A stretch of DNA of 6,014 nt. It comes from a virus (lineage: Duplodnaviria; Heunggongvirae; Uroviricota; Caudoviricetes). The first letter of the stretch is position 1. Each line of letters begins with the position of its first letter. A model generated the notes under the pieces. It saw only the letters and a program-made list of their open reading frames with translations. It was not told where the DNA came from and ran no database searches. The DNA lies in IMG/VR virus record IMGVR_UViG_2651869781_000009; one strand, written 5' to 3'. Of the stretch, positions 1-6,014 are shown one piece after another. The position numbers were made by a program, and so were the translations under genes.

Positions 1-30
1 ACTGCCATCCTGAATTTACCTTCCCTTAAT

Positions 31-129
31 GAAATAACAATAAAAAACAAACCACGCAAAAACAATAAAACAACACACAAAAAAAACTAAATAATAAACA
101 AAAATAATCACCTTATTTTATTATTTTTT
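31..129. other. G-depleted low-complexity tract: A/C-rich (approx. 32-110) then T-rich (111-129), with a single G (pos 56) in about 98 nt; 10-bp direct repeat aacaataaaa at 37-46 and 61-70
   Basis: Direct base-composition reading; no ORF of 60 aa or more in 1-442 on either strand. Confidence 0.5.
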
Positions 130-442
130 GAGGGAGCAATTACTGAACAAAAAACGCTGACTATATACTCAAAACCAAACAACTATTCTGCCAATCAGGT
201 ATCATGGCAACACACGGAATTACCGTGTTTTTGCCTTCTCTGCCCATACAATACGGGCATATACTTCATACTCTATTGTAATATTTCTATCCATGCGCCC
301 CACTCCATTTACCTGTAAATAATATTCAAAATATTTATCACAGAAATCGTTTTTGTCCATGAACTGAGCACACTATAAAGTCCGGAACTGACTCTTTGTT
401 AAATTAACTTAACGTTACCAGTAACACCTTCATAACAAAACA

Positions 443-910
443 TTACGGTATACACTGGGTACGGATATATTCCTGTGCTCCTTCCAGTTGCTTCTGCATT
501 GCTATCAGCCGTTCTCTGAGGATGAAATAATCCCGTTCAGCGGCTTCTGCCAGTCGGGGACCGGTTGCATTATCCACGCCGGAGGTGATGGGGGCTTTAC
601 GCAAGGAGCCTGGACAGTTGGCGTTGATGCGCAGGCGCTTACGACCAGCGGCAACATCAGCACGCAGAGTTTCATTTTCAGCTCTCGCATCGGCTAATTC
701 CCTCGAGTATCTGGCATCAAGTGCAGCGACATCACGCTGGCGTACCTGCATATCAGTAATTGTCACGTTCGCCAGCTTCAGCTCACTGGCTTTTTTATCG
801 CGTTGCGCTTTGTAGGTAATGGCGTTATCGAGGTAATGATTCAGCCCCAGACTAAGCACACCACAGGCTACCAGCAGGACAATAATCACCACACACAGAA
901 CACGGTTCAT
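443..910 (-). CDS. Rz: Rz-family i-spanin (inner-membrane spanin subunit)
   Basis: 155 aa; N-terminal TM segment ([16 protein letters not shown]), then motifs recalled from lambda Rz ([46 protein letters not shown]); ATG at 908-910 preceded by GAGGGGG; last gene of a holin-endolysin-spanin cassette. Confidence 0.9.
505..690 (-). CDS. Rz1: Rz1-family o-spanin lipoprotein, wholly embedded in Rz in the +1 frame
   Basis: 61 aa; signal peptide with lipobox (LVVSAC), proline-rich mature part ([30 protein letters not shown]) resembling lambda Rz1 from memory; ATG 688-690 preceded by GAGGGA about 8 nt upstream. Confidence 0.85.
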
Positions 911-1061
911 ATCCCCCTCACCCCACCAGCCATGACAAAGTTAAGACGCGCCAGGCAGTGGAAAAGCAAATAGCAACCAGCATTAGTGAAAATGAAATGC
1001 CGACGATTACACAGAGGATCTTCGCCAGCGTTATGAGCTTGTCTGACATGCTTAATCCTCT

Positions 1062-1244
1062 TCACGATTTCAACGCAATGACCAGTTTTGCCAGCCCATA
1101 CAGCATCGGAGACACAGCAATACCGACCGCCACCCACTTAATAGCAAAAGCCAGCGCTCTGCTGACGTCATCAGTTACAGGCGCTTTCAGTTCAAGGCCG
1201 TTTTTCATAGTCAATCTCAACAGAATTCGTTTATACTTTCCCAT
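1062..1244 (-). CDS. hypothetical 60-aa tail-anchored small membrane protein (basic N-terminus, C-terminal TM helix)
   Basis: ATG 1242-1244 preceded by AAGGGAGAAC (SD-like, short 3-nt spacing); TGA at 1062-1064; product MGKYKRILLRL...AFAIKWVAVGIAVSPMLYGLAKLVIALKS. The 86-aa form in the ORF track begins at GTG and reads through the terminator hairpin, so the internal ATG is preferred. No family recognised. Confidence 0.35.
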   Translation of the reverse strand: MGKYKRILLRLTMKNGLELKAPVTDDVSRALAFAIKWVAVGIAVSPMLYGLAKLVIALKS

Positions 1245-1277
1245 GTTCTCCCTTGCCTTACTCAAGGTCAGAAACAC

Positions 1278-1320
1278 AAAACCCCGTTTGCGGCCAACAA
1301 ACGGGGTTTTACTTTTATTC
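1278..1320. terminator. strong intrinsic terminator hairpin, potentially bidirectional
   Basis: 13-bp perfect stem AAAACCCCGTTTG (1278-1290) / CAAACGGGGTTTT (1298-1310) with 7-nt loop, then ACTTTTATT on + strand; the complement is also followed by a T-rich run (TTTTGTGTTTCT). Confidence 0.6.
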
Positions 1321-1399
1321 ACTTAGTTTTTGCCAGTTCGCAGGATTTCGTGTTATCCGCCCGCGTTGGCCAACGTCATTTTTCAGCAAAATATTCTGC

Positions 1400-1933
1400 T
1401 TATCTGTCAATTCCCCAGCACGCCAGTGCACTTTCCTGGTCTCGCCGGGATACCTGACCGTAGCAATTATTTGAGCGGATACGGCAGTCTCTGCCACCGT
1501 CCTTAATCCACCAGCGAATCGCTTCGCAGGCACCTTTTCGATCACCTGCATTAATCCGTCTGTAAAACGTAGACGGGAAACACTTACCGGGGCCAATGTT
1601 ATAAGGACAAAATGACGCGATACCCGCCTTCTGGGGTTCGGTCAGCGGTACTTTAATATTGCGCTCCACCCACTCCAGCGCCTTATCACGTTCAATGGCG
1701 TTAACCTGGTCGCACTTTTCCTTCGATAACTTCATACCCGGGACGACAGGCTTACCATCCACTCGGGTGGCACCGCGGCAGATGGTCCAGATCCCCGCAC
1801 CATCACGGTATGCCGTGGTGTGGTTACCTTCTTTTTCGTCAAGAAACTGGTCGAGGATTTCAGGCGCAGACGTCCCTGCACCAATCAGCGCCAGAACGGC
1901 AGCCGACAGGCCGTATCTGATTTTTGCGTTCAT
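1400..1933 (-). CDS. R: SAR endolysin (T4-lysozyme-like muramidase, GH24) with N-terminal signal-anchor-release domain
   Basis: 177 aa; Gly/Ala-rich weakly hydrophobic N-terminus (YGLSAAVLALIGAGTSAP) typical of SAR domains; catalytic triad spacing E-x8-D-x5-T (EGNHTTAYRDGAGIWT) as in T4 lysozyme and phage 21 R; resembles Qin-prophage lysozyme from memory. No SD-like sequence upstream of ATG 1931-1933. Confidence 0.9.
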   Translation of the reverse strand: MNAKIRYGLSAAVLALIGAGTSAPEILDQFLDEKEGNHTTAYRDGAGIWTICRGATRVDGKPVVPGMKLSKEKCDQVNAIERDKALEWVERNIKVPLTEPQKAGIASFCPYNIGPGKCFPSTFYRRINAGDRKGACEAIRWWIKDGGRDCRIRSNNCYGQVSRRDQESALACWGIDR

Positions 1934-2058
1934 GGATATTTATCAGGATTTATCGGTTCCGGCCCCCTGGATATGTTAAGTCTTCAGCCCGCCGGTGGTG
2001 GGCACTGGCGTAAACCCAACAATGTGAGATGGCTGCCTCGCAAAGATAATGAACAGAT

Positions 2059-2322
2059 ATGAATGAAGAAAATACAGCGCTTTTTGACAGAATTTTCACT
2101 CTTGAGTTACAGGTCGGTTTTCTTCTCCCAAAGATAATCAAAGCCATGGATGCACTTGGTAAGAATAACGCTGTGTCAGATTACCTGATCGCCGAAATGG
2201 AACATCTCATTAAAGAAATACCAAAGACCGATGCTCGTGATGATAAAAGATTCCTCAGGGCTGCTGAAAATGCTCTTTCGACCGTGAAGCGCAGCTTAGA
2301 CGCGCCGCAAGATCAAGAATAG
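2059..2322 (+). CDS. hypothetical 87-aa acidic, predicted helical protein on the opposite strand to the lysis cassette (candidate moron)
   Basis: Only long open frame in an AT-rich segment visibly lower in GC than the flanking lysis genes, where stop codons are frequent; ATG 2059-2061, TAG 2320-2322; no clear SD; GATAAT at 2045-2050 could be a -10 giving a near-leaderless transcript. Converges on the 148-aa gene with a 15-bp gap. Confidence 0.4.
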   Translation: MNEENTALFDRIFTLELQVGFLLPKIIKAMDALGKNNAVSDYLIAEMEHLIKEIPKTDARDDKRFLRAAENALSTVKRSLDAPQDQE

Positions 2323-2337
2323 TTTCTTTCATTTCGT

Positions 2338-2784
2338 CTAATGCAAGTACCTCATCTTTTGTTGGGGTGCTTTTTTCAATTCAGAGATATAGCACTCCAG
2401 TTGTTCAATACGTGATTCAATATCATCTTTTTCTGACCGCAATGCCGTCGGTGGCGTCTTCAGAGAACCAGTAATTCTTCCCGGTAGCTTTCCTCTGTAG
2501 GTTATCAACACGTCCTGCGCCTCTAAAATGATGGGCCGCTTTTCCGGCAACGGACCATCCCCTTCACATAACCCGGCAGCAACATCCATGAAAAACTGCT
2601 TCGCCTGCTTTTTCGCCTCAGCTTCGTAAAACTCCAGCGTGGCTCCTTCAGTACGGTCAAGACTAATCGCCACATCTGGCAACAACAGTGACGGATACCC
2701 ACCAATTTCCGGTGCCACAGTAACAGTAATCTTATCCGGGTAATTATTTATCCCTTTAACAACCAGTTCGTATTTTTTCTTCAT
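2338..2784 (-). CDS. hypothetical 148-aa protein translationally coupled to the holin; possibly YdfR/DUF1327-like (family name from memory, unverified)
   Basis: ATG 2782-2784 lies 4 nt after the holin stop, with SD GGGGAGAG inside the holin 3' end; soluble protein with a C-terminal coiled-coil-like segment (DDIESRIEQLECYISELKK); sits between holin and endolysin, as ydfR does in Qin. Confidence 0.7.
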   Translation of the reverse strand: MKKKYELVVKGINNYPDKITVTVAPEIGGYPSLLLPDVAISLDRTEGATLEFYEAEAKKQAKQFFMDVAAGLCEGDGPLPEKRPIILEAQDVLITYRGKLPGRITGSLKTPPTALRSEKDDIESRIEQLECYISELKKAPQQKMRYLH

Positions 2785-2788
2785 CGCT

Positions 2789-3004
2789 TTACTCTCCCCG
2801 CGCCGCCTTACGACGGTCCTCTCTGATTTTGAAATACAGGTTAGTCAGATACGTCAGCAGGCCAAACAGCAGACTCCCCAGCACACCTATCGCCACCCAC
2901 TGGGACGGAGAGACTTTGTCCAGCAGCTGCAGTAACCAGTATCCCGTCCCCACCGCTGACGTGGTGTATGACACACCCGTTGTGATTTTTTCCATCTGGT
3001 ACAT
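2789..3004 (-). CDS. S: class II pinholin (phage 21 S-like) with dual-start motif
   Basis: 71 aa; MYQMEK... gives Met1 and Met4 starts; two TMDs (TMD1 Gly/Ala-rich SAR-like, TMD2 [23 protein letters not shown]); C-terminus [15 protein letters not shown] matches recalled S21 (YFKIKEDKRKAARGE); SD GGGAGA 6 nt upstream of Met1. Confidence 0.9.
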
Positions 3005-3079
3005 ACCCCGTCTCCCGCAATCCGGAAGCTCACAACAACAGGAGGGGCATCAGCTCACACCGACAGCCCCTGCGTATGG

Positions 3080-3349
3080 TTACATCATCATTTCGCCGCC
3101 AGGCTGAGGCTCACTGCTACCGTCAGGCTGAGACACAACGCCATCTGAAACAGCACTGTCACCCGCGCCGTCTTCAGGCTCAGGAGCAGCCGGTCCCCCC
3201 AGCAGCTCATCCAGAATGGCATCCACTTCAGCATCAAGACGCGCCTCAAGATTCTGGCGGAGTTGCTGTTTCAGTGCGCTTCTGACTTCTTCAGAGCGCA
3301 GGACGTCCTTCACTGCTTCAGCAGTGACCAGAGATTTTATTTCTGACAT
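3080..3349 (-). CDS. hypothetical 89-aa acidic protein with low-complexity C-terminus
   Basis: Internal ATG 3347-3349 of track ORF 3080..3505 (the long form starts at GTG and overlaps the upstream small ORF); weak SD (GAGAAAA); TAA at 3080-3082; product MSEIKSLVTAEAVKDVL...EPQPGGEMMM. Confidence 0.4.
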   Translation of the reverse strand: MSEIKSLVTAEAVKDVLRSEEVRSALKQQLRQNLEARLDAEVDAILDELLGGPAAPEPEDGAGDSAVSDGVVSQPDGSSEPQPGGEMMM

Positions 3350-3386
3350 AGGATTTTCTCGTTGAAAGGTGTTGTTAAGAAAGTTG

Positions 3387-3569
3387 CTACGAAATGAGAG
3401 GCTCTTCGGGTTTTGTTCCGGCTGACTGGCTGGCGCTGATTTTTTCCGCCGCCGCGGCATCAATCTTTTTGCGTATATAGTTCCGGATAACCTTATACCC
3501 GCCACTTACCAGATATAACGTGCACACCACCGTGCAGAAATACAATAAAATAAGCTGTACAAATCTCAT
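3387..3569 (-). CDS. hypothetical 60-aa small membrane protein (N-terminal TM helix, charged C-terminus)
   Basis: ATG 3567-3569 preceded by a strong SD (GGGAGGG, about 4-5 nt spacing); TAG at 3387-3389; product MRFVQLILLYFCTVVCTLYLVSGGYK... Confidence 0.5.
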   Translation of the reverse strand: MRFVQLILLYFCTVVCTLYLVSGGYKVIRNYIRKKIDAAAAEKISASQSAGTKPEEPLIS

Positions 3570-3663
3570 TATCCCTCCCGGTTATTGATATGGTGTTGAC
3601 ATCGTTAATACCTGTTGGTTAAAAAAGTGTCCTGCATGTTTTGCTTTGGATATAACGACATTT

Positions 3664-3711
3664 GCCGCCGGTTCTGGCTCCTTGTTTTCCCTGCCCCGGC
3701 GGCCTTTTTTT
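3664..3711 (+). terminator. GC-stem hairpin plus T7 tract (terminator-like on + strand; the same hairpin is a 3' stem-loop on the nanS-p mRNA)
   Basis: 8-bp all-GC stem GCCGCCGG (3664-3671) / CCGGCGGC (3696-3703) with a large 24-nt loop, followed by C + TTTTTTT (3705-3711); on the minus strand it is preceded by A7 and not followed by U's. Confidence 0.35.
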
Positions 3712-3716
3712 CCTGC

Positions 3717-5654
3717 TTACGGGTTATTCACTTCCACTGTTATACTTTCAATCAGCACCGGATATGTCGCACCGCTAGTGATATCGGTCACGCGCAATTT
3801 GTCTGCCGTAAACGTGCCGACCGGTGACTGTGACAGCATGAACGGCGTCCCGTCCTTACCATCAATGACCGGCGTCACCTCAATACTGTTGTTACCGGCA
3901 AAACGGAAGCCCAGCGTATGCCATTCGTTATCAAATGCGCCGAATGACCCCAGCTTCGTGTTCTGACCAGCATTTCCCTTGTGGTACATCACATTAAGGT
4001 CTGTGGCATCGCTCTGTACGTAAAACGACGCCAGCAGGTTATGACCGGCATTACCTTCCAGTGTGACGCCCTGAGGCAGTGAAGAAACCGGCCAGTACAG
4101 CGCCAGTGCGTACTGATTAGCTGTCAGTGTGCCATCAACTTTAAAACGACAACTGATAAGCCCGCCCTTCTCCAGCAGGTCTGCGCCATTACCGACATCA
4201 TGCTGCATAAACCACGAGGAACTTCCTGTCTGTTTGGTCCACCTCAGCGCCTTACCTCCTGCAGCACCTGCATCATCAACTACCAATGCACGCCCTCCTT
4301 CAGCTCCCCATCCCTGCGGATTCAGTAAACCACCTGACTCTGTTGCACGGTAATAAAGCAGCGTTGTCACTGATTTCCCGTCCGTTGACGGTGTTGATGG
4401 TGTGTCCGGTGACGGCTTCTCATCCGGCGGCATCACAACCTGTTCCCCACCCACCAGTTCAGCCGTCCGTCCTGCATGGAGAAGAATCGCTGAGGCAAGA
4501 CGGTCAGAAATAATCCCCCTGCGTGCCCATGAGCTGAAATGGCTCGCACGGTCTGCTGACGTCCAGTTTGCCGACGTCCGGGAGGCCGCACCGTAATATC
4601 CTGATGCCGGAATATCCGGGTCTTCTTCCGGTTTGTTCGTCGGGACATTTGCTCCGTTCTCATCGGTCATGAACGGCACAAAGTGAATATTCTTTTCCGT
4701 TTTGTTTTTGTAACTGCCGTACACCGTCTGGTAAGTGGATTCGCTCTTCTGCTTCCAGAAATAAGTTGTGTCTCCACATATCCAGGGAACACCGTCAGCA
4801 GAACCACCAGCGCACTGTCCCACCATATCTGCAAGGTCCGTACGATATTGTTCCACTACTTCTGTAAAACGGGCTGTGTGATTTGCTGGCGTTCCGTCAA
4901 AGTCAAATTCCCCCTGCATCCACACCACGGCAAGCAGCACATTTTTCGGGTTCTTTGCCAGCGCGGCTTTTGTACGACCGATGAGATCCTTATACAGCGG
5001 CCTGCCCACACCCCAGCGGGTAGAACTCTCTGAGGCACCGGTCACGTCACTGTATGTTCCATCTGCCCCGGTGGTGAAAGCTGAACCACCACGGCAGCAC
5101 GGAACCAGAAGAATACCCGCATTCGCCGGTATAAACGGCAGCAGCTTTTTGGCAATATGCAGCCCCTGCCCCACGGTTCCGTACTGACCTTTCGACAGGT
5201 CAGCTTTCGGATGGTTAAGACGGCTCATGTCCTGTACATCATGCAGACAGTGGTCTGCCGGAATAATGTCGTTATATTTACAGGGAGCGCCATCCGGCGT
5301 CACTGTGCTGCGACGAGCCAGTTGCTTTATACGCGGGTCAGGACGGTCATATGTCTGCGGCAGAGGAAGCCCCTCACCGTAAGCCATGCCGTTCGACTGC
5401 CCGGCCAGTGGAATAACGTAGTAATAATCTGGCTCCGTGGTGACCACTCCCGGATAGCCACCATCCCCCGTGCCGGGCACAACCACTGGCGTGGTCACAT
5501 CCCCCTCCGCGGCAATCGCCTGCATCAGGGTATAAGGGGTTATGGCCACAGGACTACCAAACGGCTGCCAGCCCTCTTTCAGTTTGTGTGTCAGCTTTTC
5601 CGCAAGATCTGACGGCGACGCCGCCCTGACAACATCATAATGTTTAATCGACAT
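3717..5654 (-). CDS. nanS-p: prophage-encoded sialate O-acetylesterase, NanS-p-like (SGNH/SASA esterase)
   Basis: 645 aa; GQSN SGNH-hydrolase block I motif (IPLAGQSNGMAYGEG); length and position (after late promoter, before S) match NanS-p/yjhS homologues of O157 lambdoid prophages as recalled; ATG 5652-5654 preceded by GGGAGA at 6 nt. Confidence 0.85.
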   Translation of the reverse strand: MSIKHYDVVRAASPSDLAEKLTHKLKEGWQPFGSPVAITPYTLMQAIAAEGDVTTPVVVPGTGDGGYPGVVTTEPDYYYVIPLAGQSNGMAYGEGLPLPQTYDRPDPRIKQLARRSTVTPDGAPCKYNDIIPADHCLHDVQDMSRLNHPKADLSKGQYGTVGQGLHIAKKLLPFIPANAGILLVPCCRGGSAFTTGADGTYSDVTGASESSTRWGVGRPLYKDLIGRTKAALAKNPKNVLLAVVWMQGEFDFDGTPANHTARFTEVVEQYRTDLADMVGQCAGGSADGVPWICGDTTYFWKQKSESTYQTVYGSYKNKTEKNIHFVPFMTDENGANVPTNKPEEDPDIPASGYYGAASRTSANWTSADRASHFSSWARRGIISDRLASAILLHAGRTAELVGGEQVVMPPDEKPSPDTPSTPSTDGKSVTTLLYYRATESGGLLNPQGWGAEGGRALVVDDAGAAGGKALRWTKQTGSSSWFMQHDVGNGADLLEKGGLISCRFKVDGTLTANQYALALYWPVSSLPQGVTLEGNAGHNLLASFYVQSDATDLNVMYHKGNAGQNTKLGSFGAFDNEWHTLGFRFAGNNSIEVTPVIDGKDGTPFMLSQSPVGTFTADKLRVTDITSGATYPVLIESITVEVNNP

Positions 5655-5740
5655 CGAATTTCTCCCGTGTACAGGAACAGAGTTAAAAAGCCGGAACCGG
5701 AATCAAATCACAGGATGACCATCTGCCAGTGGCTGGTCGT

Positions 5741-5767
5741 AAAAAAAAGGCCGCGCCATGCGCAGCC
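5741..5767 (-). terminator. intrinsic terminator on minus strand, candidate tR' of the late operon
   Basis: Minus-strand reading GGCUGCGC-AUG-GCGCGGCC (8-bp stem, one G.U pair) followed by U8 (plus-strand A8 at 5741-5748); about 87 nt upstream of the nanS-p start. Confidence 0.55.
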
Positions 5768-5879
5768 GGAAATAAAGGGATAACGATGATAGTTTGAGAA
5801 AAACAGAAATAACACTTTTGTGGCAAAGCATGGTGCCGGGTGCCTCCCGGTGAATTCAGTACCAGCACCTGAATCCGCG

Positions 5880-5888
5880 ATTATCCCA
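5880..5888 (-). promoter_or_regulatory. candidate extended -10 promoter element (TGGGATAAT on minus strand); possible late promoter pR'
   Basis: Minus-strand TGnGATAAT about 115-130 nt upstream of the tR'-like terminator, the right spacing for a short 6S-like leader; no good -35, acceptable for extended -10 promoters. Weak call. Confidence 0.25.
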
Positions 5889-5920
5889 TATACCTGGTTG
5901 CTGATTGCCCCTCCGCACAG

Positions 5921-5939
5921 CTGTCTCTTATACACAAGT
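5921..5939 (+). other. isolated 19-mer CTGTCTCTTATACACAAGT, 18/19 identical to the IS50/Tn5 outside end (17/19 to the mosaic end)
   Basis: Direct reading; only position 4 (T for A) differs from the recalled OE CTGACTCTTATACACAAGT; flanks do not match IS50 interior or Nextera adapter continuation; no inverted copy found in window. Confidence 0.3.
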
Positions 5940-5965
5940 CCCCGAATCCGGGGATTTGTTATTTC
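5939..5965 (+). terminator. short GC hairpin plus T-rich tail (terminator-like on + strand), directly abutting the OE-like 19-mer
   Basis: TCCCCG-AATC-CGGGGA stem-loop (5939-5954) followed by TTTGTTATTT. Confidence 0.3.
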
Positions 5966-6014
5966 AGCCAAACTGCTTTCAGTTGTTGCGTGTGGCTACG
6001 CTTTCCATTCGGTA
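5959..6014 (-). CDS. possible 3' end of a gene running off the right edge (C-terminus ...PNGKRSHTQQLKAVWLK); could be the Q antiterminator by synteny only
   Basis: Open minus-strand frame from the window edge to TAA at 5959-5961; only 17 codons visible, no homology recognised. Confidence 0.2.
   Translation of the reverse strand, partial: PNGKRSHTQQLKAVWLK

Follow-up and report, generated by a model that had tools for sequence, protein, structure and literature searches.

The window, that is, the whole stretch of 6,014 nucleotides analysed here, consists up to position 5920 of lambdoid prophage DNA with its genes on the minus strand, comprising a nanS-p-type SASA esterase gene, DUF1378, DUF826, holin, lysozyme and Rz (the later names are taken from the annotated genes of near-identical relatives). 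An ORF of 148 aa belonging to the DUF1327/YdfR family (2338-2784, minus strand) is situated between holin and lysozyme; it is open in the window and in the chromosome contig L156 described below, and the most closely related complete genomes have it annotated as an incomplete pseudogene. Scans for Rfam families and tRNA genes gave no matches in the window. The features around the end of the prophage DNA are as follows.

3717 to 5654, minus strand: nanS-p-type gene for a SASA carbohydrate esterase of 645 aa, with which the late genes downstream of the insertion begin (ORF; DUF1737, SASA and DUF6645; annotation in relatives).

5655 to 5920, minus strand: leader of the late operon upstream of nanS-p, including a terminator-like hairpin at 5767-5749 (minus strand); the prophage homology ends at 5920, and the site homologous to the hairpin is annotated 'terminator' in phage 434.

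5908 to 5912, no strand assigned: CCCCT, left arm of the palindromic target CCCCT-CCGCACAG-GGGG(A), based on the empty-site sequence and on the excess of C-runs at -13 to -10; the right arm is found on the far side of the element.

5913 to 5920, no strand assigned: left copy of the 8-bp target-site duplication CCGCACAG; the same 8 bp follow the right end of the element in L156 and in E. coli E2348/69, and the empty site has one copy.

5921 to 5939, plus strand: left 19-bp terminal inverted repeat of OE type, ISEc13 family (18 of 19 positions as in the Tn5 OE; identical at the left terminus of the 1564-bp copies in the plasmid record L001 and in L156).

5921 to 6014, plus strand: first 94 bp of an insertion sequence, up to the window edge (all 94 bases identical in 55 plasmid records; in L156 the full element follows without a break).

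5936 to 5962, plus strand: inward-facing hairpin resembling a terminator, AAGT-CCCCGAATCCGGGG-ATTTGTTATTT, which shares 4 nt with the end of the inverted repeat (fold -6.7 kcal/mol, z = -2.6).

The 19-mer at 5921-5939, CTGTCTCTTATACACAAGT, was the single match to the outside end (OE) of Tn5 in the window at up to three mismatches, and the same search in 200 dinucleotide-preserving shuffles retrieved none. The sequences used were CTGACTCTTATACACAAGT for the OE and CTGTCTCTTATACACATCT for the mosaic end (ME), both of which agree with the oligonucleotides printed in PMC3347997. The 19-mer shares 18 of 19 positions with the OE (position 4 is T, not A), 17 with the ME (mismatches at positions 17 and 18) and 13 with the inside end (IE). 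A resemblance to the OE at 18 positions and beyond chance had been pointed out in the preliminary description and is reproduced here, as are two further points made there: with the terminal C at 5921 the body of the element extends to the right, an orientation that recurs in full copies, and the window holds no inverted partner, neither of OE nor of IE type. The bases that follow, CCCCGAATCCGGGG..., are indeed unlike adapter sequence and the IS50 interior, which in native IS50 continues with AGCGTCCTGAACGG... (oligonucleotide CW5 in PMC3347997).

All prophage matches among 5,426 complete E. coli genomes, phage records and PLSDB plasmid records end exactly at 5920, including that of one relative which matches the window from 1 to 5920 at 99.9%. 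In relatives the site is empty: CCCCTCCGCACAG is directly followed by GGGGATTCACC (in the longer reading, by GGGGATTCACCATGC), and there is a single copy of CCGCACAG. None of the complete E. coli genomes, phage records and plasmid records spans the 5920/5921 junction, and an exact search for 32 nt across it in genome, viral and metagenome contigs also found nothing. An exact look-up of the nanS-p protein, in turn, led to a 4.47-Mb chromosome contig (GCA_976941965.1, L156), which is 99.98% identical to the window from 717 to 6014, a match that includes the junction and runs on to the end of the window, interrupted by a single mismatch at 3497. The element in L156 is whole, comprising 1564 bp with 8 positions different from the plasmid copy, and its right end is directly followed by CCGCACAG and then by the sequence of the empty site. 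The window itself contains 94 bp of the element, whose completeness is deduced from L156, differing at that one base. The duplication had been proposed to be 9 bp long (TCCGCACAG, 5912-5920), but the one seen in L156 is the 8-bp CCGCACAG at 5913-5920.

The sequence from 5921 to 6014 is 100% identical to the left end of an element on 55 Salmonella Kentucky and E. fergusonii plasmid records, whose gene is named 'IS4-like element ISEc13 family transposase' by NCBI. In the plasmid record L001 this element measures 1564 bp; its transposase gene starts about 180 bp into the element on the plus strand (position from L001 3180-4553), with the stop codon falling within the right end, and the element terminates on the right in the reverse complement of CTGTCTCTTGATCAGATCT, which is exactly the inside-end 19-mer of IS50. 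The far end thus carries this inside-end sequence and not an inverted copy of the same 19-mer, for which the preliminary description had suggested looking. Terminal repeats of about 19 bp starting with 5'-CTGTCTCTT and of the Tn5 OE/IE type are present, the left one in the window and the right one in L001 and L156. Perfect matches to the IS end of the window were confined to the Salmonella Kentucky and E. fergusonii plasmids and L156, and the best match among the 5,426 complete E. coli genomes reached 93.6%; an exact search for 40 nt of the IS end in genome contigs (one genome per species) found no copy.

The name of the element rests on the NCBI annotation and on an overall identity of 95.7-97.3% to E. 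coli copies annotated as ISEc13 family (e.g. in EPEC O127:H6 E2348/69); by the convention of ISfinder, isoforms share at least about 95% nucleotide identity with the reference. Chromosomal ISEc13 copies in E. coli, which occur for instance at 30 places in E2348/69, are 1550 bp long as against 1564 bp, and the two forms differ by indels of 2 bp and 12 bp and by several substitutions, concentrated in the first ~95 bp. Their right ends are the same, their left repeats are one base apart (AAAT in ISEc13, whose left end reads ...ACAAAT, vs AAGT), and both have the 457-aa layout of the transposase. The element, in all likelihood an isoform of ISEc13 (IS4 family, IS50 type), is a known one, and its insertion is ordinary. 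Among the options of the preliminary description, the end of an IS4-family element was therefore the right one, 5921-6014 being the left end of an ISEc13-family element that is complete in L156.

The transposase, encoded beyond the window, comprises 457 aa and matches the structures of the Tn5 transposase over its full length (e.g. 4dm0 and 1muh; E = 5e-83), with 42% identity and conservation of D97, D188, E326, Y319, R322 and K333 (DDE, YREK). It scores 508 bits against NCBIfam NF033590 (cut-off 160), and Pfam Tnp_DNA_bind and DDE_Tnp_1 are also matched. L156 and L001 both possess a single Tn5-homologous DDE transposase with the YREK signature; the L156 protein is intact (454/457 residues identical to the plasmid copy), so that the DDE transposase ORF anticipated to the right of the window does exist. 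On the strength of 42% identity and the conserved catalytic residues a Tn5-like cut-and-paste chemistry is expected, and the element may well be active at present. The transposase, read from the plus strand of the window, would bind the OE-like left end, with 5921-5939 as its predicted binding and cleavage site, and the IE-identical right end. It would then excise the element and integrate it with staggered cuts 8 bp apart, duplicating CCGCACAG, within a target that corresponds to a short GC-rich palindrome, CCCCT-N8-GGGG, as apparently preferred by elements of the ISEc13 group.

IS50 and Tn5 are the obvious systems for comparison. The element shares all 19 positions of its right end with the IE of IS50, including both GATC sites, and 18 of the 19 positions of its left end with the OE; the Tn5 transposase is a full-length homologue with conserved DDE and YREK residues, but its identity is only 42%, and the interior DNA of IS50 is unrelated to that of the element. 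The target duplication of IS50 is 9 bp long, in contrast to 8 bp for the element and 8-11 bp for its group, and the ISEc13-type group differs from IS50/Tn5 also in its marked preference for palindromic targets. IS50/Tn5 itself was rejected as the identity of the element on the basis of T at position 4, the unrelated interior, the 8-bp duplication and the 42% identity of the transposase.

Three other origins of the 19-mer have to be considered. Its similarity to ME (17/19) and OE (18/19), the end of the window soon after it and the lack of a match for the junction in three large contig collections would be in line with a Nextera/tagmentation ME adapter or a laboratory Tn5/EZ-Tn5 joined to phage sequence. 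However, exact ME is absent, the 19-mer deviating from ME at positions 17-18 and from OE at position 4, and the sequence downstream is that of a natural IS: the next 75 bases are 100% identical to the element on the 55 plasmids and resemble neither IS50 interior nor adapter. In addition, the junction is contiguous within the 4.47 Mb of L156, with the matching 8-bp duplication at the far end, and the position of the window edge is unsuspicious, as many IMG/VR contigs end 77-119 bp inside ISEc13, a normal assembly break at a multicopy repeat. The contiguous junction and its matching duplication refute assembly or library contamination as listed in the preliminary description, and we regard a laboratory artefact as highly improbable. 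A motif native to the lambdoid late region, the alternative under which the same 19-mer should recur at the same place in lambdoid prophages, could be invoked because the flank up to 5920 is a block widely conserved in lambdoid and Stx phages; yet related prophages carry the empty site, continuing with GGGGATTCACC... and never with the 19-mer, and an IS end is found here in only 4 of 5,426 genomes, each time as a full ISEc13. The chance that the 19-mer is native phage sequence is negligible.

A solo or truncated relic, of which only the left end survives in the source genome as in the rluA remnant of K-12, would account for the 94 bp seen in the window, and decayed relics of such elements occur in about 2,000 E. 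coli genomes. These 94 bp are, however, 100% identical to intact copies, whereas the K-12 relic shows 91.5% identity and a degenerate repeat, and L156, with its identity of 99.98%, has the whole element with an intact ORF. A solo relic end, likewise among the earlier options, is thus unlikely, if somewhat less so than an artefact. Judged from these sequence comparisons, we hold with high confidence that the 19-mer is the inverted repeat at the left terminus of an ISEc13 isoform of 1564 bp, complete and probably active, which inserted by cut-and-paste into a lambdoid prophage.

Genuine relics of such elements are widespread. In E. coli K-12, between rluA and yabQ/yabP (L002 2501-2860), a degenerate ISEc13-like left end, CTGCCTCTTGTACATAAAT, with 91.5% identity over 94 bp is found alongside a frameshifted N-terminus of the transposase, the two having the appearance of an old, fixed relic. 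The 94 bp are matched over their full length, at about 91-94% identity, in some 2,000 complete E. coli genomes, apparently by the same rluA relic (location checked only in K-12). A palindromic miniature element of 50 bp, made of two OE 19-mers back to back that share a central CCCC-loop-GGGG hairpin, occurs at the same palindromic site in two gut-metagenome contigs (L045 1471-1520 and L052 1603-1652), with the loop inverted (TCCC vs GGGA); no clean direct duplication was found around it in either contig.

Several loci have unusual flanks. In contig L043 (OKPF01000826.1), where the IS extends from about 3361 downward, the left flank is that of the plasmid site (as in L006) and the right flank that of the prophage site (CCGCACAG-GGAGATTCACC), to be explained either by two IS copies having recombined or by a chimera of the metagenome assembly. 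Full-length ISEc13 copies without matching duplication are present in L012 (E2348/69, 680532-682081), L023 and L030, each flank carrying half of a different palindrome, as might result if IS copies had rearranged with one another. Of the viral contigs with this IS end (L015-L035), more than half stop 77-119 bp inside the element, the window after 94 bp, and the right edge of the window is thus probably a short-read assembly break at the IS repeat.

The insertion site appears to have been used more than once. Canonical ISEc13 of 1550 bp is located at the identical nucleotide position, with the same orientation and duplication, in the E2348/69 lineage (the 4 of 5,426 genomes mentioned above) and also at this position in the IMG/VR contig L029, in a prophage backbone strongly unlike that of the window. 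That two isoforms occupy one and the same nucleotide position suggests that the site was hit independently at least twice. The palindrome of the empty prophage target can also be read at L004 10908-10927.

Target choice was surveyed at 63 unique flanks of elements with this OE, taken from viral and metagenome contigs (L001-L151). A 4-nt window with at least three C residues at -15 to -7 was present at 95% of the 63 sites compared with 16% of random positions, and one with four C residues at 46% compared with 1.5%. The C-run sits 9-13 nt from the junction; in the first 21 sites C was found at -13 to -10 in 15-18 of 21, with a mirror G-run on the opposite side. Among 12 duplications, six of 8 bp, three of 9 bp, one of 10 bp and one of 11 bp were clean, and a further one of 9 bp contained a mismatch; inspection of the flanks revealed inverted arms of 4-8 bp directly flanking 10 of these 12. 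The length of the duplication, 8-11 bp, follows the spacing of the arms in CCCC(T)-N8-11-(A)GGGG targets. A fixed 9-bp duplication of the Tn5 type was rejected on the observed flanks; shifting the element boundary by one base (G...C), which would save a duplication of 9 bp, works for L011 but fails for L013 when the flanks are inspected. Several environmental relatives reside inside classic terminator hairpins consisting of A-run, GC stem and T-run. The hairpin of the prophage target palindrome folds weakly by itself (DNA fold -5 kcal/mol, z = -0.7); as it is followed by a T-run on neither strand, it was rejected as an intrinsic terminator at this site.

One tentative explanation of these patterns is that ISEc13 and its OE-sharing relatives choose GC-rich palindromes or hairpins, often intrinsic terminators, cut them at the base of the arms and carry a terminator of their own, the prophage palindrome being a hot spot. 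Cutting at the arm base would result in duplications of 8-11 bp and not of a fixed length as in Tn5. A precedent for symmetric GC-rich targets within the IS4 family is IS231A, which prefers a target of the GGG(N)5CCC type and generates duplications of 10-12 bp; it differs from the ISEc13 group in its subgroup, its ends and the polarity of the motif, which is CCCC...GGGG in the latter. In the searchable literature we found no description of palindrome-directed targeting or of the left-repeat hairpin; ISEc13 appears there only in lists of mobile elements, and a search for targeting of terminators by IS4-family elements gave nothing relevant.

With respect to late gene control, the position of the insertion can be read from L156, where, in phage sense, Q (which lies outside the window) ends at 350 and is followed by a TerB fragment (804-950), DUF3927 (947-1114), the IS (1171-2734) and the start of nanS-p at 3001. 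About 820 bp thus separate the Q stop codon from the beginning of the element, and 266 bp its end from the nanS-p start; its transposase gene is antiparallel to the late genes. Relatives show terminator-like hairpins 35-100 nt downstream of Q, and the curated record of phage 434 places a terminator at the same relative position after a Q82-like gene. From these terminator positions it follows that the Q/pR'/tR' module is some 0.8 kb upstream of the element, which lies within the antiterminated late unit. A search for sigma-70-like promoters in 5500-6014 and within the element yielded none, so that neither a late promoter next to the 19-mer nor a promoter directed outward is supported; the initial placement of the insertion between Q and the late promoter, and beside the latter, does not hold, the element starting ~820 bp after Q with no promoter-like site near.

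The surroundings of the site vary between phages. In Stx1 phage 75/02 the Q-to-nanS-p segment holds stx1, and stx1B lies ~120 bp upstream of the same site, which is empty there; in E2348/69 the genes before it are Q-tRNA-tRNA. As indicated by these different neighbours, the site marks where the Q-to-nanS-p segment, variable in its genes between phages, ends on the downstream side. A strong terminator-like hairpin also occurs in the leader, ~95 nt upstream of the nanS-p start in the late sense (5767-5749, minus strand; GGCTGCGCATGGCGCGGCC, then T8), and the homologous site bears the annotation of a terminator in phage 434.

The element brings in hairpins of its own. The one at 5936-5962 adjoins the left repeat and is followed by a T-rich tract; it probably shields the transposase gene from read-in transcription off the flank. 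Inspection of the left ends of L011-L151 showed that a hairpin at this repeat (AAAT/AAGT-CCCC...GGGG-ATTT) is kept in divergent relatives, with compensatory changes in the stem (AAGC/GCTT, CAG/CTG, GGCA/TGCC) and a T-run after it. Two more terminator-like hairpins (L001 3945-3927 and 4008-3990) are found on the strand antisense to the transposase gene, the one along which late transcription crosses the element. Lambda Q-modified polymerase is resistant to terminators. Because it reads through them, induced late expression should largely survive, and the effect of the insertion on it is probably small, while read-through by unmodified polymerase into nanS-p and the lysis genes would be expected to fall.

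For the annotation of this prophage, the right edge of the window has to be taken as the end of an IS and not as phage regulatory DNA, and the late promoter has to be sought elsewhere. The insertion in the window is in itself of small importance, as a known IS in a prophage is common. A site that lies near stx1B in phage 75/02 and was hit by two ISEc13 isoforms in different backbones could, however, serve as a marker or influence the expression of late or moron genes. The palindromic target preference and the prophage hot spot represent modest leads, and a natural relative of Tn5 with a strong preference for palindromic targets may be useful for studies of how Tn5-type transposases choose their targets.
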